From Eubacteriales bacterium (lineage in GTDB: Bacteria; Bacillota; Clostridia; Oscillospirales; RGIG5299): a DNA stretch of 53,618 bases. Location: assembly GCA_045542315.1 (NCBI GenBank), contig JAZQKU010000085.1, forward strand, positions 1-53,618. The letters run 5' to 3'. The notes under the pieces were generated by a model. It did not search any database and had not been told where the DNA came from. It saw only the letters and a program-made list of their open reading frames with translations. The position numbers and the translations under genes were made by a program. Below, one piece after another: positions 27,615 to 52,910 of the stretch (position 1 is the first letter of the stretch; every line of letters starts with the position of its first letter).

Positions 27615-29322
27615 CCTTTCCTACAGGGAAAATTATGAAAAATGGATAACCTCGCCCTATATCGATGGGGCAACTCGTGATGAGCTTATGGCTATTGAAA
27701 ATGATGAAAACGAGCTGAAGATGCGGTTTTCGGCGCCGATGGAGTTTGGTACGGCAGGTCAGCGCGGCGTTATGGGAGCAGGCCTTTCGCGTTTAAACGT
27801 CTATACGGTGAAATACACCACCCGCGCGCTTGCAAGCCTTATAATCAAAGAGGGCAAAGCGGCAATGGAGAAGGGCGTTGTGATCGCCTTTGACTGTCGC
27901 TTGAATTCAAGAGAGTTCGGTTACGAGGCGGCGGCGGTGCTTGCCTCAAACGGAATAAAGGTCTTTATTTTTGATGAGCTTACCCCTACCCCCGTGCTTT
28001 CCTATGCAATCAGAAGGCTCGGTGCAACGGCCGGAATAAATATAACCGCAAGCCATAATCCCGTTGAATATAACGGCTATAAGGTTTACTGGTCAAACGG
28101 CGCACAGCTTCCGCCGAAGGAAGCCGCAGTGGTTGCAAAAGAGCTTAAAAGGCTTGATATTTTTGAAGACTGCAAATCAAAGCCCGTCGATTTTCTTGTT
28201 GAAAACGGAATGATAACGGTAATGGATAACTCGCTCGAGGAGGAGTTCTGTAAAGAGCTTCTTTCCCGCAGAATAAACGGCGAAAGGGCAGATATATCGG
28301 TGGTATATACTCCCCTTCACGGCACCGGCAGACGCGCCGTCCCCTTCGTGCTTCGCGAAATGGGAGTTGAGGTGGAAACGGTCACTGAGCAGATGATACC
28401 CGACGGACACTTTTCAACCGTGCCATCGCCGAATCCCGAAAACGCGGTCGCATTTGAATATGCTCTTTCGGTTGCAAATAAAAACGGAAGCAAGGCGGAT
28501 CTGCTTATTGCAACCGATCCCGACGCCGACAGAATAGGCGTTATGGCAAAGAAAAACGGCGAATATAAGGCGATAAGCGGAAATCAGATGGGCGTGCTTC
28601 TTTTGAATTATATGATAACCGCCAAGCGCGAAAAAGGAATTTTAAAGGAAAAAAGCGGTGCGATATCCACAATAGTTTCCACTCCGCTTGCCGAAAAAAT
28701 CGCAAGGAAAAACGGACTTTCCTTTGCCTCGACCTTTACAGGCTTTAAATTCATTGCCGAGAAGATAGATGAGTGGCAGGGTGACGTTGACTTTCTTTTC
28801 GGCTTCGAGGAAAGCTTTGGCTATATGGTGGGCGACTATGTACGTGATAAGGATTCCATCGGTACGGCAATGATGGTCTCGGAGGCTGCGGCATACTGTA
28901 AAAGACAGGGCAAAACCCTTTTCGACCTTCTCGATGCAATATATAACGAATACGGCTATTACTTTGAAAAGACCGATAATATAATGATGAAGGGGATCGA
29001 GGGTCCCGAAAAGACCAAGCGTCTGATGAGCGAGCTTCGCGGAAATATAACCGAGCTCGGCGGCGAAAGGATAGAAAGGATAGCCGACTATAAGAGCGGT
29101 GTTATAAAGGAGCTTGCAAGCGGCAAAGAGGAGCCTACGGGAATGGAAAGCTCAAACGTTTTGAAGTTCTTTTTGGAGGACGGCTCTGCCGTCTGCGTGC
29201 GCCCCTCGGGAACCGAGCCGAAGGTGAAGGTCTATTACCTCGTTTGCGGCAAGGACGAGAAAGAATGCATTTTAAAGACAGAAAAATTGCAAAAAGCAAT
29301 AAACGGCATAATAGCCGATTAA
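27607..29322 (+). CDS. Phosphoglucomutase/phosphomannomutase
   Basis: FGTAG, TASHNP, DPDADR, FEES, RPSGTEPK. Start at MADLS after GGAG. Confidence 0.93.
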   Translation: MADLSYRENYEKWITSPYIDGATRDELMAIENDENELKMRFSAPMEFGTAGQRGVMGAGLSRLNVYTVKYTTRALASLIIKEGKAAMEKGVVIAFDCRLNSREFGYEAAAVLASNGIKVFIFDELTPTPVLSYAIRRLGATAGINITASHNPVEYNGYKVYWSNGAQLPPKEAAVVAKELKRLDIFEDCKSKPVDFLVENGMITVMDNSLEEEFCKELLSRRINGERADISVVYTPLHGTGRRAVPFVLREMGVEVETVTEQMIPDGHFSTVPSPNPENAVAFEYALSVANKNGSKADLLIATDPDADRIGVMAKKNGEYKAISGNQMGVLLLNYMITAKREKGILKEKSGAISTIVSTPLAEKIARKNGLSFASTFTGFKFIAEKIDEWQGDVDFLFGFEESFGYMVGDYVRDKDSIGTAMMVSEAAAYCKRQGKTLFDLLDAIYNEYGYYFEKTDNIMMKGIEGPEKTKRLMSELRGNITELGGERIERIADYKSGVIKELASGKEEPTGMESSNVLKFFLEDGSAVCVRPSGTEPKVKVYYLVCGKDEKECILKTEKLQKAINGIIAD

Positions 29323-29350
29323 AAATTCGGAGCGAAGGCTCCGAAAATAT

Positions 29351-29427
29351 CCGCCTGTAGCTCAGCTGGATAGAGTAGCAGATTCCGATTCTGACGGTCG
29401 GGGGTTCGAATCCCTTCAGGCGGGCCA
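29351..29427 (+). tRNA. tRNA-Arg(CCG)
   Basis: Cloverleaf with acceptor CCGCCTG/CAGGCGG, D-arm GCTC/GAGT, anticodon loop TTCCGAT, T-loop TTCGAAT and encoded CCA. Confidence 0.95.
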
Positions 29428-29467
29428 AAGCAACAAAGCACCTCAAAAGAGGTGCTTTATTGTTTTT
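29428..29467 (+). terminator. Terminator-like hairpin after tRNA-Arg; part of the repeat unit, recurring at 29613-29652
   Basis: AAGCAACAAAGCACCTC-AAAA-GAGGTGCTTTATTGTTTTT. Confidence 0.75.
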
Positions 29468-29472
29468 AAAAG

Positions 29473-29612
29473 GAAGGGATTCGAACTGCGAATGGGAGCA
29501 GCTGCGAGCATTAGCTACGCAGATGCGACGGAGAAACAGTCCGGGGGACTGTTTTGAATTCGCCCAAGGGAGCGCGGTGCGCGACTGCGAGAAAATCCCT
29601 TCAGGCGGGCCA
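29473..29612 (+). repeat. tRNA-linked structured element, copy 1, ending in a duplicated tRNA-Arg 3' end
   Basis: Begins GAAGGGATTCGAAC, the reverse complement of tRNA 29404-29417. Core AAACAGTCC-GGG-GGACTGTTT hairpin. Ends AATCCCTTCAGGCGGGCCA, identical to 29409-29427. Confidence 0.9.
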
Positions 29613-29657
29613 AAGCAATAAAGCACCTCAAAAGAGGTGCTTTGTTGTTTTTAAAAG

Positions 29658-29792
29658 GAGGGGATTCGAACTGCGAATGGGAGCAGCTGCGAGAGAAGTG
29701 AGCAGATGCGACGGAGAAACAGTCCGGGGGACTGTTTTGAATTCACCCAAGGGAGCATAAGCGAGCGCGAGAAAATCCCTTCGCCTCCACCA
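29658..29792 (+). repeat. tRNA-linked structured element, copy 2, ending in a different (Ala/tmRNA-type) 3' end
   Basis: Near-identical to copy 1 apart from hairpin tips and a few substitutions. Ends AATCCCTTCGCCTCCACCA. Confidence 0.9.
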
Positions 29793-29825
29793 GAAAAAAG
29801 CATCGACTTTGTCGGTGCTTTTTTC
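29793..29825 (+). terminator. Terminator-like hairpin after the CGCCTCCACCA end
   Basis: GAAAAAAGCATCGAC-TTT-GTCGGTGCTTTTTTC. Confidence 0.75.
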
Positions 29826-29828
29826 AAC

Positions 29829-30006
29829 TAAATCCACCCTTGCGGGTGGGTGAAATATTGCTTTGCAATGTGAAATACGCCTGCGGCGTGTGAAATTCGC
29901 CTCGACGGCGAGTGGGTGGATTTAATTTCATTTGATGCGATAGCATCTAATTTCACAATTTACGGAGTAAATTATTTCACCGTGAGCGTAAGCGAACGAT
30001 TTCACT
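29829..30006. repeat. GTGAAAT/ATTTCA(C) box array with mini-hairpin spacers
   Basis: GTGAAAT at 29850, 29870, 29890. ATTTCA(C) at 29925, 29950, 29974, 29999. A different short hairpin follows each GTGAAAT box and separates successive ATTTCA(C) boxes. Confidence 0.85.
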
Positions 30007-30113
30007 AAAAGAGTTCAAATTTATACGCAAAAGTCAAAAAATGATTGTACAGTTAATTGAATCTTGCAATTAAAACCACATTTAAAAAAATTGGACAAAA
30101 TACGTTTTTCCTA

Positions 30114-30142
30114 TTGCAAAAAAAATCTATTTATATTATAAT
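30114..30142 (+). promoter_or_regulatory. Sigma-A-type promoter for the islet genes
   Basis: TTGCAA, 17-bp spacer, TATAAT. Confidence 0.6.
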
Positions 30143-30200
30143 TAAGGAAATATATATTCAAATTTAGATATATATTAATAAAATGTTACGGAGGTAAATT

Positions 30201-31694
30201 ATGAAAACGAAAAAAATCATTGCGTTTTTCCTTTGCATTGTTCTGTTCGTTTCGATTTTTGCGGGCTGCACAGATCCGAAGGTGGTTACGACCGAAGACG
30301 TTTACAATGTATTGGATCACGGCCTTACGGCAGACGGTAAAACCGACGTTTCCGCGGCGCTTTTGAGTCTTATTGAAGAGGCTGAAAAAACCGGCGGAAC
30401 TCTGGTATTCCCCAAGGGCACCTATTACGTTGAAGCGGGAGAAATCGCTATTTCGCAAAATATAGGCATCACGCTTCTTGACGGTGCAAGCTTTAAACTT
30501 AATGACGGCACTGCCTTCAATGTTGCAACCGGCGCATTTTCGGCTCCTAAAGCACAGATATTTGCCGGCAACGGTGTCATTTCAGGATTTGTAAACGTTC
30601 CCAACGTTTATTCCGAGTGGTTCGGCGCAAAGGTAAATGACGGAAAGGACGATTCCGACGCCGTTCAGAAGGCTGTTTCCACCGGCGGCAAGGTAACCTT
30701 CCTTGAAGGAAAATATAATATAGACAAATCGGTTGTTCTCGGAAATATTGCGGGTGGCGTAGTCGATATTTACGGTGCGGGAGCAAACAAAACCGAGCTT
30801 ATTTTCGGAAATAATATAATCGGCTTTGATGCGCACAGCAACGGAATGACTCTTGCAAAATTCAATGCATACGGCATCGCATTTTGCGAGAAGGATAATG
30901 CCAAAACCTCAACGGCGATCAAGATAAGCAACCCGGCAATAACCGCAAGAAATTGCCATTTCGAGGGTTTGAAGACAGGAGCATGGTTTGACCACGCCGG
31001 CGGTCATTTTTCGAACAACACCGCAAATGATTGCGAGGTAGTTTACGAAATTTCCGATTTTTCAATGTATATTTATTTCAGCAAATGCGAAGCAGTAAAA
31101 TGCGGCACTCTTATTAAAGCGATCGTATCTCCTTCTGGTGGATATTCAAACGGAATCCTCATTCAGAACTGCAAGAGCGTTGACGCTTTTGCAGAGGACA
31201 TTTACCTTACCGAAAATCAAGCGGTCTGGATTGCAGACTGTGAGTTTATCGGCGGTACAGGGGGTATAGCTTCCGTTTACTTTAAGTCAAATACTGACTC
31301 GGGCATTGAAAACTGTGTTATTTCCTCTGCAAAGGGAAGCGATAGAGTAGGTATCTATTACGATGCCAGCTTCTACTGCTCTATTCAGGAAAACACTATT
31401 TCAGACTGCTCCGAGGCTATTCGCTTAAGCGGCGGCGGCGCGATGACCGTTACTGATAACGTTATTTCCGGAAGCTCCAAGTGCGAGCTTGCGATCCGTT
31501 CGCAGTACAATATTTTTGTTGCAAGAAATCTCTTTAAATCAGAGCTTGAAAAGCCTATCGTTTCAGAAAAGGTAAATAAAAAGATAAATATTATTGAAAA
31601 TACCTTTGCAGCTGCCGAGCACGATATTGCGGCAGGCTTTTCGGGAAAGAATATTACGGCTGAGGATAATATCTTTGGCTACAGCTTTAACTAA
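30201..31694 (+). CDS. Lipoprotein with right-handed parallel beta-helix (pectate-lyase-superfamily / tailspike-like glycan-active protein)
   Basis: Signal peptide with lipobox FAGC. YNVLDHGLTADGKTDVSAAL and EWFGAKVNDGKDDSDAVQKAV N-terminal motifs. Beta-helix-like I-x-N-x-I repeats (IQNCK, IENCVI, IQENTI, VTDNVI). Confidence 0.75.
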   Translation: MKTKKIIAFFLCIVLFVSIFAGCTDPKVVTTEDVYNVLDHGLTADGKTDVSAALLSLIEEAEKTGGTLVFPKGTYYVEAGEIAISQNIGITLLDGASFKLNDGTAFNVATGAFSAPKAQIFAGNGVISGFVNVPNVYSEWFGAKVNDGKDDSDAVQKAVSTGGKVTFLEGKYNIDKSVVLGNIAGGVVDIYGAGANKTELIFGNNIIGFDAHSNGMTLAKFNAYGIAFCEKDNAKTSTAIKISNPAITARNCHFEGLKTGAWFDHAGGHFSNNTANDCEVVYEISDFSMYIYFSKCEAVKCGTLIKAIVSPSGGYSNGILIQNCKSVDAFAEDIYLTENQAVWIADCEFIGGTGGIASVYFKSNTDSGIENCVISSAKGSDRVGIYYDASFYCSIQENTISDCSEAIRLSGGGAMTVTDNVISGSSKCELAIRSQYNIFVARNLFKSELEKPIVSEKVNKKINIIENTFAAAEHDIAAGFSGKNITAEDNIFGYSFN

Positions 31695-31708
31695 AGGAGG
31701 AGAAGAAG

Positions 31709-33337
31709 ATGTTTAAGAAAATAGTTTCAATTTCACTTGCGTTAATGCTTATTCTCGGTCTTGCCTCCTGTGGCGGTTCGGAAATGAAGATTTCGGGCGT
31801 GCAAAGCCAATTCTATTCCGAGCCTAATGACATAACCAATCCCATTTCATTCCCCGACGTTAAGACGATCGTGGGAAATGAGAAAAACCTTATCGACGTT
31901 AAGGCTCACGGCGCAGTATCCGACGGTGAAACCGACGATACCGCTGCTGTAAACGCAGCAATCGAAGCGGCTTCGGCTGTAAACGGCATCGTTTATTTTT
32001 CGAGTGGAAAATACCTTGTCGGAGATATAGTTGTTCCTGCAAACGTAGCCTTTGCAGTTGCCACTTCTGCAACCGTTACCGTTAAAGATGGCTCAAAAGC
32101 GGTTATCAACAGCTCCGATATTTATCTTCCCAAAAAAGCGGTTTTGGCAGGCGCATTCGATTTCACCGGCGGCGTAAACTACGCATATCCGGAGTGGTTC
32201 GGCGATGGAAGCAAGGGTATTCAAGGAGCAGTAAATGCGGCCGATAAGGTTTACCTTATGAGAACCAACTACCAAATAAAAGAAACTGTAATAATTCCTC
32301 AGAGCAGAAATATTGAAATTATCGGCTCCTCTAACACCGCAACCGTAATTACAATGGCCGGCGAGAAGCTCTCTTACGTATTCGAATATATTTATGAAAG
32401 CGGTGCTGCTTCAAATCTTTCTGTCTCGTTTATCCGTATTGTTGATAACACGGGAATGAATTTCATTAAATTCTATGGCAACCCCGCAAACAACGAAGGC
32501 AAGCTTGAAATTAATACTATGCGTATCGAGAACGGCGCTGACACTACTATTTCTGTTGTCAAAAACTCAACAGGCTCATTCTATGAGGAGATCTTTGCCG
32601 CGAATATTAAGCTCCTTGCAAAATTCGAAGGAGGCGTCAACGATGTAACCTTCAGCAGAGCTCTCAGCTTGAGTAATATGCAGGGATTTCTCGAGGCAGA
32701 CGGTGCCATCAACGGAGAGGGCGTTTCCAAGAAGCTTTATTTCCATAACTCAAGCTCTGTCCACGTAAAGGGTATTGATTTTATAATTTCAAATTATGAG
32801 GACGTAACCTTTATTCACAGCTCCGGCGACCTTGGTGAAAGAGAAACCAACGAGGCTGCTCTTAAGATGACCAATGTTAATGATTTTGAACTTACCCGTT
32901 GCTGGTGGGCTTCAAACACAGGTCTTTCCTACGGTGCGGAGTATGGCATTGCAAGAAGCAGAATAGGCGTTTACCTTATAAATTGCACCAACGGTAAAAT
33001 CAACGGCAATTCCATTGTAAACCAGTGGACAGGCGTAAAAATCGTTGGCGGAAGCGATATTTCTTTAGAGGGCAATACATTCCAGGGCTGCGGTCATTCC
33101 GAACTCACTCTTGACGGTGCGAAGGACGTTACCGTTCAGGGAAATACCTTTATGTCGGGTGGACAGTTTGCTATAATGAGTGCAGACGTTAAGGATCCTG
33201 ACGGAATCTATCTTATAGAGTCCTTGTCAACGAATGAAAACATTATTTTCAAGCATAATTTCATTTCTAAAATCACCCGTGCAGGCGATGCCGCAAACGG
33301 CGACGTTCCCGGTTTTACTTTACATAACAACGTATAA
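31709..33337 (+). CDS. Lipoprotein with right-handed parallel beta-helix (pectate-lyase-superfamily / tailspike-like)
   Basis: Lipobox LASC, IDVKAHGAVSDGETDDTAAVNAAI, YPEWFG, INGNSI/LEGNTF/VQGNTF repeats. Distant paralog of the upstream gene. Confidence 0.75.
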   Translation: MFKKIVSISLALMLILGLASCGGSEMKISGVQSQFYSEPNDITNPISFPDVKTIVGNEKNLIDVKAHGAVSDGETDDTAAVNAAIEAASAVNGIVYFSSGKYLVGDIVVPANVAFAVATSATVTVKDGSKAVINSSDIYLPKKAVLAGAFDFTGGVNYAYPEWFGDGSKGIQGAVNAADKVYLMRTNYQIKETVIIPQSRNIEIIGSSNTATVITMAGEKLSYVFEYIYESGAASNLSVSFIRIVDNTGMNFIKFYGNPANNEGKLEINTMRIENGADTTISVVKNSTGSFYEEIFAANIKLLAKFEGGVNDVTFSRALSLSNMQGFLEADGAINGEGVSKKLYFHNSSSVHVKGIDFIISNYEDVTFIHSSGDLGERETNEAALKMTNVNDFELTRCWWASNTGLSYGAEYGIARSRIGVYLINCTNGKINGNSIVNQWTGVKIVGGSDISLEGNTFQGCGHSELTLDGAKDVTVQGNTFMSGGQFAIMSADVKDPDGIYLIESLSTNENIIFKHNFISKITRAGDAANGDVPGFTLHNNV

Positions 33338-33409
33338 GTACTAAACAAAACTCAATAATATTATTTTGGGATATATTTAGGGCTTGGGGATTTTTGTACT
33401 AACACCACC

Positions 33410-33459
33410 TCGCCCAAGGGAGCATAAGCGAGCGCGAGAAAATCCCTTCAGGCGGGCCA
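33410..33459 (+). repeat. 3' fragment of the tRNA-linked element plus tRNA-Arg 3' end duplicate (attR-like)
   Basis: TCGCCCAAGGGAGCATAAGCGAGCGCGAGAAAATCCCTTC matches copy 2 (29743-29782) with one mismatch, then continues AGGCGGGCCA. Confidence 0.88.
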
Positions 33460-33462
33460 AAT

Positions 33463-33492
33463 AGCCCCGCACCTCTTTTGAGGTGCGGGGCT
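33463..33492 (+). terminator. Hairpin after the distal tRNA 3' duplicate
   Basis: AGCCCCGCACCTC-TTTT-GAGGTGCGGGGCT. Shares the GCACCTC/GAGGTGC core with the hairpins at 29428 and 29613. Confidence 0.7.
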
Positions 33493-33559
33493 TACTTTAT
33501 AAAACCTCTTGAATTCCTCCCTACGTTATGTTATAATGTAAAAAAGTGAGGTAGAAAAA

Positions 33560-34684
33560 ATGGAAAAGGTCGATTTAAAAAAGCGAAGCTCCTTCGGCGA
33601 GAGGGCAAGCGTTATAGGAATATTTGTAAATCTTTTGCTCGCGGCGGGTAAAATCGCGGTCGGCGTTCTTTTCGGCATTGCCTCGCTCACCGCCGACGGA
33701 ATAAACAACCTCACCGACTGCGGAAGCAGTGCGGTATCGCTTCTTTCGTTCAAGCTTTCCTCAAAGCCCGAGGATAAGGAGCACCCCTACGGCCACGAGA
33801 GGATAGAATACATCTGCTCGGTTGCCGTTGCGGTCATTATTCTTTTGGTCGCCTTTGAAACGGCTAAGGACAGCATTTCAAAAATAATCACACCGCCCGA
33901 AATGGAATTTTCTCTTTGGGTAATTCTCGTTTTAGCAGCTTCCATTTTGGCAAAGCTCGGACTTTTCCTCTTTTATCGCATTACGGCAAAAAAAATAAAC
34001 TCCGATATTCTCAAGGCCGCTTCGGTTGACAGCTTGAGCGACTGCATATCGACCGCCGTCGTTCTTCTGACGGTTATAGCCGCAAAGCTTTTCGGAGTAA
34101 ACGCCGACGGCTATGCCACGGTTTTCGTTGCGGCATTTATCGCATGGTCGGGCATCGGAATTTTAAAAGAGACACTTTCGAAGCTTATAGGGCAGGCTCC
34201 CGACGAGGAGCTTATCCGCGATATAAAAAGACGTATTACCTCGAGAGAAGGAGTACTCGGCGTCCACGACGTTGCGGTATATTGCTACGGACCCAATAAA
34301 TTTTTCGTAAGCGCACATATCGAGGTCGATGCAAGCGTTGACGTTTTGAAATCGCACGAGATGGTTGACGATATCGAAAGGGAATTTTTCACCGAAACCG
34401 ATATGATACTCACGGGTCACTTAGACCCAATCGTTACCGACGATGCGGAATTAAACGTTATGAAGGAGCGCGCAACAGAGGCGGTAAAGGAGCTTGACGC
34501 ACGCTTTTCGGTTCACGATTTCAGGATGGTAAAGGGCGAACGCCGCACAAACGTCATCTTTGACGTGGCGATTCCCTTTGACGATGAAATATCACCGCAT
34601 GAAATAAAAAACGTTTTAAAGGAAAAGCTTTCGGCTGTAAATTCAAAATACGCTTTCGTTATAACCGTTGAGCATACGCTGTAA
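33560..34684 (+). CDS. Cation diffusion facilitator family transporter
   Basis: ADGINNLTD, PEDKEHPYGHERIE, DSLSD, C-terminal dimerisation domain with HLDP. Confidence 0.92.
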   Translation: MEKVDLKKRSSFGERASVIGIFVNLLLAAGKIAVGVLFGIASLTADGINNLTDCGSSAVSLLSFKLSSKPEDKEHPYGHERIEYICSVAVAVIILLVAFETAKDSISKIITPPEMEFSLWVILVLAASILAKLGLFLFYRITAKKINSDILKAASVDSLSDCISTAVVLLTVIAAKLFGVNADGYATVFVAAFIAWSGIGILKETLSKLIGQAPDEELIRDIKRRITSREGVLGVHDVAVYCYGPNKFFVSAHIEVDASVDVLKSHEMVDDIEREFFTETDMILTGHLDPIVTDDAELNVMKERATEAVKELDARFSVHDFRMVKGERRTNVIFDVAIPFDDEISPHEIKNVLKEKLSAVNSKYAFVITVEHTL

Positions 34685-35723: not shown

Positions 35724-36359
35724 ATGAATCAGGTAAAAATCGGAGATTTTATTGCAACGGAAAGAAAACGACTCGGGCTCACTCAAAACGAGCTTGCGGA
35801 AAAGCTCTCTATCAGCAATAAAACGGTATCGAAATGGGAAACGGGAAGGGGACTTCCCGAGGTGTCGCTTATGCTGCCGCTTTGCGAGATATTGGGCGTT
35901 ACGGTAAACGAGCTGCTTGCGGGAGAGAGAATAACCGAAAACGCCGAGAAAAAGGCAGAGGAAAACCTCATGCTGCTACTTGAAAGCAACGAGAAAACAG
36001 ACAGAGGGAAAAGAATATTTCTGTCGGCGTCGGTAGCAGTGCCGCTTTCGGCGGCGGCGTGGCTATTGTGCTTCGCCGACAGCAACATCTGGCAGATCGG
36101 TGATATTCCAACACCTCTCACGGCGGTCTATCTTTTAACGGGATTTGCTTTGATATTCGGAACGGCGTTTTTCGGACTTCTCGGCTTCTTTCTCCGAAAA
36201 CCGCTGATAACGCTCACCGCCGTGCGCCTTGCCCTTCTTACCCTTATAATTCTCGGCATCGCATATTCCGAAACACTGTTTTTTCTCATCTCGGCGGCAG
36301 GCATAGCATTAACGCTTGCTATTTCAATAATGGTTGCAATAAGAAGGAAAAGGCGCTGA
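35724..36359 (+). CDS. XRE-family HTH regulator with C-terminal TM helices
   Basis: RKRLGLTQNELAEKLSISNKTVSKWETGRGLP followed by hydrophobic segments. Confidence 0.88.
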   Translation: MNQVKIGDFIATERKRLGLTQNELAEKLSISNKTVSKWETGRGLPEVSLMLPLCEILGVTVNELLAGERITENAEKKAEENLMLLLESNEKTDRGKRIFLSASVAVPLSAAAWLLCFADSNIWQIGDIPTPLTAVYLLTGFALIFGTAFFGLLGFFLRKPLITLTAVRLALLTLIILGIAYSETLFFLISAAGIALTLAISIMVAIRRKRR

Positions 36360-36491: not shown

Positions 36492-36790
36492 GCATGACTG
36501 AATAATGCGTTGATGCGGGAGGTTGCCGATAAGGTATTTACTGCACCTTTTCGGGTTTTTCCGCGGAGTAAGTCCGATGCAAGACGTCGGGCGGCAGGCA
36601 ATCGGTACACAGATTAAAAGCGGGCCATCTTTGAGCCGCGTTCTTTAATTGATGTGTTAGTTGCTCCGATTTTTTCATAGGGAAAAAATCGGTTTTATTG
36701 TGTAAAGACAAAAAACGCACGGAACGGTGTACACAAGAAAGCCTGCGAATAGGTCAATGAAATATCTCAAAGAAAGAGAATTTAGGAGGC
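36492..36790 (+). promoter_or_regulatory. Long structured S10 5' leader (candidate clostridial r-protein leader RNA)
   Basis: ~300-nt untranslated region between the promoter and rpsJ. Contains pairings such as GGTTGCC/GGCAATC and CCGATTTTTTC/GAAAAAATCGG. Confidence 0.5.
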
Positions 36791-52662: not shown

Positions 52663-52738
<76 letters not shown>

Positions 52739-52791: not shown

Positions 52792-52910
52792 AAGGGGGAT
52801 CGAACTGCGAATGGAAGCAGAAGCGCCGCGAAGCGGGGCAGATGCGACGGAGAAACAGTTCGGGGAACTGTTTCGAATTCGCCCAAAGGAGCGAAGCGAC
52901 TGCGAGAAAA
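52792..52910 (+). repeat. tRNA-linked structured element, copy at tRNA-Ala
   Basis: Begins AAGGGGGATCGAAC, the reverse complement of tRNA-Ala 52715-52728. Continues TGCGAATGG...GCAGATGCGACGGAGAAACAGTTC-GGG-GAACTGTTTCGAATTCGCCCAA...GCGAGAAAA, as in the tRNA-Arg copies. Confidence 0.9.

Follow-up and report, generated by a model that had tools for sequence, protein, structure and literature searches.

In the present study, we analysed a stretch of 53,618 nt from an Eubacteriales bacterium (GenBank assembly GCA_045542315.1, contig JAZQKU010000085.1; Bacillota, Clostridia, Oscillospirales, RGIG5299), referred to below as the window. Behind its gene for the transfer RNA (tRNA) tRNA-Arg(CCG) lies an array, at positions 29,351 to 33,492, which is best explained as a series of previously undescribed non-coding modules with a conserved fold, residing at the 3' ends of tRNA and transfer-messenger RNA (tmRNA) genes in an order of Clostridia from gut and rumen. 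Each unit comprises a terminator-like hairpin, a left arm mirroring the tRNA in front of it, a conserved core of about 105 nt with four helices, and the final 19 nt of the tRNA as a direct repeat. We rate as the unusual and defining trait that one end of the element is rewritten to mirror the local tRNA. No description of such a tRNA-mirroring element was found in Rfam 15 or in the part of the literature reached by a full-text search.

The window is a contig of a short-read metagenome-assembled genome (MAG), and the number of units in the array is read from the assembly alone. Its own genome (G000) was compared with relatives (G001-G003) which are other species of the same genus; five genomes of the genus were available in all, with sizes of 1.4-1.7 Mb and a completeness of 72-97%, and they hold almost no mobility genes. 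The phyletic sample comprised 151 genomes of the order from 96 genera and 30 families, and kin genomes in the counts are not independent. Genes for tRNAs were called with ARAGORN and Rfam. Copies of the element were searched with a covariance model (R1) built from an alignment (A1) of 36 distinct full-length copies; E-values of this home-made model are rough.

Distribution, mirrored arm and fold of the element

The covariance model gave five matches in G000. Within the order, it detected the element in 35 of the 151 genomes, 21 of the 96 genera and about 15 of the 30 families, with the hairpin alone in three genomes (G041, G094 and G148). Eight distant matches were inspected: a same-strand upstream tRNA was called at seven of them, directly adjacent in six and about 165 nt away in L183, and the eighth shows a tRNA 3' end. 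The exact 19-nt repeat is present in six of the eight, a repeat of 11 nt in one, and none is visible in the remaining one.

A larger collection was obtained with a 27-letter pattern of the most conserved hairpin, which matched 55 stretches in species-representative genomes and 76 in metagenome contigs. These 131 loci represent 120 distinct copies and are skewed to one well-sampled lineage, with 35 copies behind tRNA-Tyr. The exact pattern occurs in 5 of 301 genomes, all within the genus, and was too strict for the order, where it was replaced by the covariance model. In viral contigs the pattern had no match, and blastn searches of phage and plasmid collections likewise gave zero matches each. 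Within 160 nt downstream of a tRNA or tmRNA gene on the same strand lie 77 of the distinct copies; 18 others, mostly tandem units, lie 161-900 nt downstream, and one is found 2963 nt downstream inside a tmRNA array. A tRNA is absent from the stored locus of ten copies, some of which show an uncalled tRNA-like 3' end, and 14 are too near the end of their locus to be judged. Thus, 95 of the 106 assessable copies (about 90%) are located no more than 900 nt downstream of a tRNA or tmRNA gene. About 20 tRNA species in addition to tmRNA serve as anchors, and the same ones (Arg-CCG, Tyr, Ser-GGA, Gln-CTG and tmRNA) are occupied in many genera. Tandem spacing of 140-260 nt was seen in 8 of 108 locus-strands.

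In Rfam, the element was unmatched when the whole window was searched at gathering thresholds, the matches being two tRNAs, a Gut-1 motif and an S10 leader. A search of positions 29300-30200 with E-values up to 10 returned nothing credible over the element and two chance-level terminator matches.

The module has a length of 105-140 nt, and the shortest versions (about 105 nt) lack helix P3. In our reading of the standard tRNA numbering, the left arm is the reverse complement of positions ~53-66 of the cognate tRNA and the terminal 19-mer corresponds to positions ~58-76, the first 8-9 nt of which pair with the arm. Elsewhere in G000, arms of this kind stand behind tRNA-Glu and behind a gene for tmRNA, on contigs other than the window; the remaining four species of the genus have them at Arg, Ala, Glu, Gly, Gln, Trp and tmRNA genes. 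In 43 of 70 pairs of tRNA and element, 12 nt or more of the arm are the exact reverse complement of its own tRNA, whereas among non-cognate pairings this holds for 17 of 350. Opposite tRNA position 57, the base of the arm tracks the tRNA in all 44 scorable pairs (36 G/C, 8 A/T), 26 of the 70 being without a clear arm by this criterion; position 57 lies outside the 19-mer and is carried by the tRNA itself alone. In 39 of 64 pairs, the core is followed by 15 nt or more of the tRNA end as a direct repeat, which in 31 of the 64 comprises exactly the last 19 nt. Variations of this layout exist: where tRNA-Pro or tRNA-Met is the anchor, the arm of some subfamilies mirrors the complete 3' end with its CCA, and at locus L088 the arm directly abuts the tRNA end, the hairpin between them being absent. 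The end of the element resembles that of a tRNA gene, with CCA followed by a terminator hairpin.

Two further kinds of repeat were observed behind tRNA genes. The first, on the minus strand of G000:C25 after tRNA-Ala-GGC (~35823-35952), has the same layout, with a hairpin, an arm mirroring the T arm and a 20-nt repeat of the tRNA end, followed by a hairpin and a Gut-1 motif; its core is another one and is not detected by R1. A possibly related truncated copy follows tRNA-Trp on G000:C26. The arm-and-repeat layout may be generic, with a plurality of cores. The second kind consists of a terminator, about four direct T-rich heptamer boxes, a copy of the 3' half of the terminator, and the same boxes inverted. 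It occurs on contigs C2, C25, C46, C54 and C94 of G000, after tRNA-Gly-TCC, Asn, Pro-GGG, Arg-CCT, Thr-CGT and Gln-TTG, and also at locus L065.

The fold of the element is supported by covariation. In the structure predicted for A1 by RNAalifold, helix P1 closes the element by joining the arm to the first part of the 19-mer, P2 is a long-range helix, P3 is a variable hairpin of which the base is predicted, P4 is a near-invariant hairpin and P5 a further hairpin. This structure was tested against 500 shuffles on five measures and against controls with slid partners. Over the 29 consensus pairs, 96.9% of the alignment cells are paired, compared with 83.9% in shuffles and 32-47% with slid partners; compensatory changes occur at 15 of the 29 pairs, and none of the 500 shuffles reaches the observed value on any of the five measures. 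In P2, one pair is A-U in 18 copies and G-C in 18, and the next shows four pair types.

With respect to the strand, the consensus energy is -20.8 for the tRNA-sense strand and -14.8 for the opposite one, and 24 G-U cells were counted on the tRNA-sense strand against 10 A-C. For the folding of one element, z is -3.9 when it is taken as RNA and -4.7 when taken as DNA; its opposite strand gives -3.6. By eye, A1 shows tandem G-A/A-G pairs in P4, P5 and many P3 hairpins at places where other copies have Watson-Crick pairs, which favours the tRNA-sense strand but does not tell RNA from single-stranded DNA.

A preliminary description of the window, made from the letters of the sequence alone, had presented the element as a fold-defined, non-coding and unnamed module of about 130 bp, tied to tRNA and tmRNA 3' ends and carrying no integrase. 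These points agree with the compensatory pairs, the positions of the assessable copies, the empty Rfam searches and the gene content reported here. The conservation claimed for the whole module holds for the core; its ends vary, and the mirroring of the upstream T arm by the left arm had been overlooked. The order of tRNA-Arg, hairpins, elements, 19-mers, terminator, boxes and genes was found again throughout (Table 1), repeat finding returned the same periods of 185 and 180 bp, and the reported second location of the element, behind tRNA-Ala, was recovered. The 19-mer with a CCA end that had been noted as different is real and proved to be a hybrid of tRNA-Arg and tmRNA sequence.

Table 1. 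Features of the tRNA-Arg(CCG) array and of the element copy behind tRNA-Ala(CGC) (positions in the window).
Feature	Position	Strand	Remarks
tRNA-Arg(CCG), anchor	29351..29427	+	ARAGORN; Rfam tRNA 56.5 bits; last 19 nt (29409-29427) are the repeated 19-mer
Unit 1, terminator-like hairpin	29428..29466	+	Inverted repeat; stem 29435-29458, 10 pairs, T tail; A/T-rich extensions pair too
Unit 1, left arm	29473..29486	+	14 nt, 100% reverse complement of tRNA-Arg 29404-29417 (T loop, T-stem 3' strand, first acceptor base)
Unit 1, conserved core	29487..29593	+	P2, P3 (variable hairpin), P4 (invariant 9-10-bp hairpin), P5 (tandem G-A hairpin); R1 129.7 bits
Direct copy of last 19 nt of tRNA-Arg	29594..29612	+	Closing helix P1 formed by its first 9 nt and the left arm
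Unit 2, terminator-like hairpin	29613..29651	+	Copy of 29428-29466 (97% repeat)
Unit 2	29658..29773	+	Arm 29658-29671 complementary to tRNA at 13/14 positions, the odd one would be G-T; then core; R1 125.4 bits
Hybrid 19-mer	29774..29792	+	tRNA-Arg T-stem part and tmRNA acceptor 3' strand with CCA, as in G001-G003
Terminator-like hairpin opening gene-carrying segment	29793..29825	+	Inverted repeat
Gut-1 repeat (RF01706)	29825..30007	.	Plus half 29825-29901, inverted half 29920-30007; outside the element
Promoter-like site ahead of cargo	30114-30142	.	Within gene-carrying segment
Cargo, two genes	30201..33337 (30201-31694, 31709-33337)	+	Pectate-lyase-like right-handed beta-helix; Pfam PF12708, PF13229, PF05048
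3' fragment of element core (31 nt)	33410..33440	+	R1 27.1 bits; with next 9 nt a 40-nt repeat of 29743-29782 (98%)
Third tRNA-Arg 19-mer	33441..33459	+	Identical direct repeat
Terminator-like hairpin at native tRNA-Arg terminator position	33463..33492	+	In G001, orthologous hairpin directly after tRNA-Arg
tRNA-Ala(CGC), second anchor	52663..52738	+	ARAGORN, Rfam
Element copy behind tRNA-Ala	52792..52910	+	Arm 52792-52805 exact 14-nt reverse complement of tRNA-Ala T arm; without 19-mer; R1 129.9 bits

Recombination of copies and the gene-carrying segment

Copies of the element spread or recombine between different tRNA loci within a genome, multiply as tandem units and swap arms, cores and 19-mers. 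The site behind tRNA-Gly(TCC) is empty in G000, with the tRNA's own terminator directly after the gene, and is filled in G003 by a unit of about 185 nt placed before the same terminator. At the conserved locus of phosphoglucomutase and tRNA-Arg(CCG), G000 has two units and a fragment, G001 one unit, G002 three units and a stub, and G003 one unit; a variable number of units at this site had been envisaged in the preliminary description. In a tree of the cores, for which arms and 19-mers were removed, the grouping follows the genome and not the type of tRNA. Four copies of G002, which have tmRNA, Ala(GGC), Ala(CGC) and Gln(CTG) as their anchors, fall into a single clade with near-zero branch lengths and a support of 100 in the Shimodaira-Hasegawa-like approximate likelihood ratio test (SH-aLRT), and two further pairs, each made up of copies from one genome but behind different tRNAs, cluster with supports of 92 and 99. 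The clustering of cores by genome, the empty and filled site and the species-variable number of units thus show that the element is mobile or recombining.

Arms, cores, hairpins and 19-mers are reshuffled semi-independently. In the four recent G002 copies, the arm is partly adapted to the new tRNA, and two of them contain a 19-mer with the acceptor part of another tRNA. The upstream terminator hairpin is common to the tmRNA and Gln copies of this genome, and hybrid 19-mers were found in both G000 and G002. On G000:C40 (19700-19840), the 3' end of the tmRNA gene is degenerate, with about four changes which break the T stem and one acceptor pair, and is not called by ARAGORN; the contig breaks off inside the element that comes next. 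The sole intact acceptor end of the tmRNA type in the G000 assembly is that of the hybrid 19-mer in the tRNA-Arg array.

The pattern of this array is far beyond chance, and its architecture recurs in independent assemblies. Counted from start to start, the tandem units behind tRNA-Arg are spaced by 185 and 180 nt. A 100-nt repeat (29409-29508 and 29594-29693) shows 97% identity at a spacing of 185, the 19-21-mers ending in CCA at 29409, 29594 and 33441 are 100% identical, and the 3' end of the element recurs at 29581, 29761 and 33428, with spacings of 180 and 3667. The copy behind tRNA-Ala shares 79-83% identity with the Arg units. The last hairpin of the array has the 18-nt centre of the unit hairpins in reverse complement, which inverts its loop. 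Among contigs from four public DNA sequencing runs, those of X1 and X2 cover the flanks 28800-29428 and 33432-34200 with a similarity of about 98%, and the stretch 30248-33324 is nearly uncovered in X1; one X6 contig joins 29559 to 33410 across a repeat, with 21 letters on the short side.

Between the hybrid 19-mer and the core fragment lies a segment of 3.6 kb (29793-33409), in which a hairpin, a Gut-1 motif and a promoter-like site precede two lipoprotein-like genes whose products are pectate-lyase-like beta-helix proteins. It opens with a tmRNA acceptor end, and the tmRNA arrays of G001 show the same succession, with 19-mer, hairpin and Gut-1 ahead of genes. On either side of the segment stands a 40-nt repeat (29743-29782 and 33410-33449, 98%) which comprises the last 31 nt of the core and 9 nt of the 19-mer, and ordinary homologous recombination between copies therefore suffices to account for it. 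On the sequence, the simplest reading is that the segment would have arisen from homologous recombination between element copies at tmRNA and tRNA-Arg, for which no dedicated cassette enzyme is needed. Of the gene-carrying cassette proposed in the preliminary description, the bracketing by parts of the element is retained; its status as a cassette is not required, since recombination through the 40-nt repeat is sufficient.

The box array that had been counted as part of this cassette is a copy of Gut-1 (RF01706), a separate dispersed repeat outside the element. Its first half matches the full length of the Rfam model with 90.4 bits at a threshold of 50, and the inverted half remains below the threshold with 41.9 bits. 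The G000 genome contains 44 Gut-1 matches (19 over threshold) on many contigs, mostly away from tRNAs. The likeness to the Gut-1 RNA motif is thus confined to the box array, which is a member, whereas the element differs from this dispersed and mostly not tRNA-linked repeat. Often, Gut-1 occurs as two inverted halves of short boxes, each beside a mini-hairpin, directly after a terminator hairpin. It directly follows several tRNAs (Arg-ACG, Ser-GCT and the unit at Ala-GGC) and opens gene-carrying segments in the tRNA-Arg and tmRNA arrays.

Elsewhere in the window, an S10-Clostridia ribosomal protein leader (RF03136, 44.6 bits) was found at 36502-36593, with a ribosomal operon on the plus strand, and places the organism among the Clostridia.

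Proposed mechanism, partner enzymes and rival explanations

As a working model, held tentatively and at somewhat below even chances, we favour a DNA-level process which is driven by host enzymes and acts on the folded tRNA-sense strand, with the 19-nt tRNA end as the point of entry and the 3' part of the element as portable homology. The module would be a mobile or recombining repeat of DNA whose active form is the folded tRNA-sense strand, either as single-stranded DNA at replication or as read-through RNA. Together, the tRNA end, the terminator and the arm would form one long quasi-palindrome, and entry could take place at the 19-nt tRNA end by recombination or through template switching of replication at this quasi-palindrome. 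Host machinery might drive the process, namely RecA with the replisome or a recombinase of the Xer type. The repeated 3' part together with the 19-mer would act as portable homology, by which the 3.6-kb segment, apparently derived from a tmRNA locus, may have entered the tRNA-Arg array. Fold-back or template-switch synthesis at palindromes yields layouts of this kind and corrects imperfect arms towards their partner. Such a correction would explain that the arm tracks the tRNA even at a position which is absent from the right end of the element.

Several observations weigh against this model. A tRNA is missing from the stored locus in 10 of the 106 assessable copies, 27 of the 70 arms match their tRNA exactly over fewer than 12 nt, and in 25 of the 64 copies no direct repeat reaches 15 nt. 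Within G002, a tmRNA-like arm has been retained by the copies at Ala(GGC) and Gln. The occupancy of the same tRNA species across genera could reflect long vertical inheritance combined with gene conversion and not transposition. All data are assemblies, mostly of MAGs, and the mechanism is inferred, as neither an enzyme nor an insertion event was observed. Finally, the strong conservation of unpaired junction bases and the three tandem G-A motifs resemble a functional RNA more closely than they do known recombination sites.

This last point leads to an explanation that we judge somewhat less probable than the working model but a serious rival to it: the core would be a structured small RNA acting together with the neighbouring tRNA or tmRNA, for example through pairing with the T arm of the precursor or through a tRNA-like 3' end, and its spread, the tandem units and the hybrids would be by-products of recombination within a family of RNA genes present in many copies. 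The covariation in four helices, the invariant junction bases and the strand specificity of the G-U and tandem G-A pairs would be expected of it, as would an arm that tracks tRNA position 57 and an element that ends as a tRNA does. The small genomes that carry the element, nearly devoid of enzymes of mobile elements, belong to about 15 of the 30 families in the order, which also speaks in its favour. However, a strong terminator-like hairpin stands between tRNA and element, and no sigma-70-like promoter was found before either unit in a scan of positions 29200-30300. The T arm of a folded tRNA is moreover a poor target for pairing. Furthermore, units that are precisely present or absent, and near-identical copies behind unrelated tRNAs, call for a process acting on DNA in any case.

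An improbable alternative is a self-contained nucleic-acid integration device, in which arm and 19-mer specify the tRNA or tmRNA gene and the core recruits a housekeeping enzyme. The choice of target would then be programmable by base pairing, with no protein encoded by the element. In a still bolder variant, the RNA would supply a spare 3' quarter (positions 58-76 with CCA) to its tRNA or tmRNA, which would fit the degenerate tmRNA 3' end of G000.

The element carries no enzyme gene, and the search for a partner encoded elsewhere, for which the preliminary description had proposed a co-occurring tyrosine recombinase or HUH enzyme, returned no candidate that co-occurs with it. Among the five genomes of the genus, Phage_integrase matches occur in all, are Xer-like or phage-type throughout, and none is near an array; each of the five has Xer-like tyrosine recombinases. 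With the integron-integrase model TIGR02249, the Xer-like proteins of the genus score 47-116 bits at a cut-off of 265, and none adjoins an array. Serine recombinases (Resolvase) were detected in two of the five genomes, rve in one and DDE_Tnp_1 in one; reverse transcriptase (RVT_1, PF00078), the TnpB zinc ribbon (PF07282, over cut-off), IS110 (PF01548) and Cas1 (PF01867) were found in none. The HUH family Y1_Tnp (PF01797) is represented in one genome, where its frame is interrupted by stops. This broken frame of the IS200/IS605 type adjoins a DDE_Tnp_1 transposase gene at G000:C75 19932-21686.

A divergent Xer-like protein common to G000, G001 and G003 is present in 53 of the 151 genomes of the order. 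It does not track the element, being found in 15 of the 35 carrier genomes and in 38 of the 116 others, and was therefore discarded as a candidate partner. In G000, this recombinase of 278 amino acids is encoded at C53 15291-16124; up to 15 copies per genome were counted (G091), which suggests a mobile or inverting element of its own.

A second group of enzymes concerns the quite improbable idea that the elements are scars of integration: attP or attR arms left by integrases which target the T loop, with integrase-less, cis-mobilisable remnants amplified by later integrations. A direct repeat that starts in the T loop and ends with the CCA is classically left behind when DNA integrates into a tRNA gene, and arrays with gene segments between repeats resemble accretion. 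In addition, one integrase stands beside the element among the 131 pattern-scan loci (at L082, L113 and L154, which are probably the same island), and the same is true of G044 and G069. The recombinase queries matched no other locus of this set, and no tRNA-end repeat was seen between integrase and element at L082/L113/L154. Homologues of this integrase occur in 6 of 301 genomes, none of them in the genus of the window. Two of the six (G044 and G069) carry the element nearby. Here, integrase islands of about 7 kb are inserted in tRNA-Leu in another family (G044:C38 25807-32789, 6.7 kb; G069:C12 78018-85075), upstream of a pre-existing unit of the element, each with a 14-nt repeat of its own and repeated arm-type boxes at its two ends. 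The islands are clean cases of nesting at the same target, and with the element outside the repeats of the islands the adjacent integrase was rejected as a partner; integrases and element share a target, not a mechanism. Nor are att arms expected to keep long-range compensatory pairs, and the phage, plasmid and viral collections gave no matches to the element.

It is very unlikely that the module is a guide-type RNA, that is, a scaffold with a tRNA-matching segment of 14-24 nt directing a nuclease or transposase in the manner of CRISPR-associated transposons or the homing guides of TnpB and IscB. A variable target-complementary segment is indeed joined to a constant structured scaffold, and the element lies about 45-60 nt downstream of the matched site. 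However, the five draft genomes of the genus are devoid of TnpB over cut-off, IS110 and Cas1 and hold rve once, no omega RNA, tracrRNA or CRISPR family of Rfam matched with E-values up to 10, and no promoter was found before the units.

It is hardly credible that short-read metagenome assembly produced the tandem units and the hybrid 19-mer as artefacts: the window is a MAG contig, contig C40 of G000 breaks within an element and public-run contigs break at repeats, but the architecture, including arrays of 2-4 units, recurs in independent assemblies from other studies and genera, the units differ by 3-12%, which is enough to resolve them, and the hybrid junction shares what are probably too few bases for a de Bruijn chimera.

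Comparison with known systems

Various known types of sequence were considered and set aside. A degenerate inverted tRNA gene is contradicted by the lack of a cloverleaf and of an ARAGORN call, and a group II intron without an open reading frame by the far too small size of the element. For a retron, or for an arm serving as a primer-binding site in tRNA priming, no reverse transcriptase was found, and an RNase P-like RNA is without an Rfam match. The lack of reverse transcriptase in the five genomes of the genus also separates the element from retroelements in general, including group II introns and SINE-like elements. From guide-RNA systems (TnpB, IscB, IS110 and CRISPR-associated transposons) it differs in that the effectors searched for (TnpB over cut-off, IS110, Cas1) are absent from these genomes. 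Unlike a miniature inverted-repeat transposable element (MITE) of a DDE transposon, it has arms that vary with the tRNA and a stereotyped duplication of 19 nt, and rve and DDE_Tnp_1 occur in one of five genomes each, which leaves it outside the definition of a MITE.

With the att scars of tyrosine integrases, the element shares a direct repeat of the tRNA 3' end flanking inserted DNA, but no integrase-bearing relative was found whose attP holds the arm sequences. Islands in tRNA and tmRNA genes and their remnants of the CIME (cis-mobilisable element) type resemble it in the 3'-end direct repeat starting at the T loop, the tandem accretion and the use of tmRNA as a further target. In contrast to them, its unit measures only about 185 nt and contains a structured core and an inverted copy of the T arm, and the real integrase island of G044 is differently built and stands beside the element. 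Elements of the CTX-phage type exploit the host Xer recombinases via a folded single strand. They are similarly recombinase-less and form tandem arrays, and a folded strand could mimic a duplex target; the target of the element is, however, a tRNA end and not dif, and the one divergent Xer-like family does not track it.

In its way of working, the element is most like an attC site or a repetitive extragenic palindromic (REP) repeat, yet it departs from both in their defining features, so that the analogy to integron attC sites and REPINs drawn in the preliminary description does not extend to membership: there is no IntI, no terminal box and no RAYT. REP and REPIN repeats with RAYT, and elements derived from IS200/IS605, are likewise short, structured, intergenic, enzyme-less multicopy repeats which are probably active as a single strand. 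The element is larger, has several helices and is not dispersed, with about 90% of its copies behind tRNA or tmRNA genes, and the Y1/HUH family is limited to one broken frame in one of five genomes. The likeness to attC is one of principle only and consists in a non-coding, enzyme-less site with a conserved fold, one active strand and gene-carrying arrays. Sites of the attC type conserve only short core and inverse-core boxes at their ends, whereas in the element a sequence of about 100 nt is conserved together with four helices. The ends of the element are taken over from the tRNA beside it and vary accordingly, and A1 shows no constant terminal box. Moreover, intI, attI and Pc are absent, and the cargo has a promoter-like site of its own.

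If our interpretation is correct, the element represents a widespread class of structured elements in gut Clostridia which has so far gone unnoticed and marks the 3' ends of tRNA and tmRNA genes, and part of the strain-to-strain variation beside tRNA genes in small genomes would be explained by it. Should its function be that of an RNA, a new class of tRNA-linked non-coding RNAs would be present in about a fifth of the sampled genera of the order. Either way, the covariance model can be used to annotate the element in MAGs, and its compact fold of 105-140 nt with covariation support lends itself to structural and biochemical work. As a DNA-level element, it would add a third use of tRNA genes as landing sites to those by integrases and by guide-RNA transposons.

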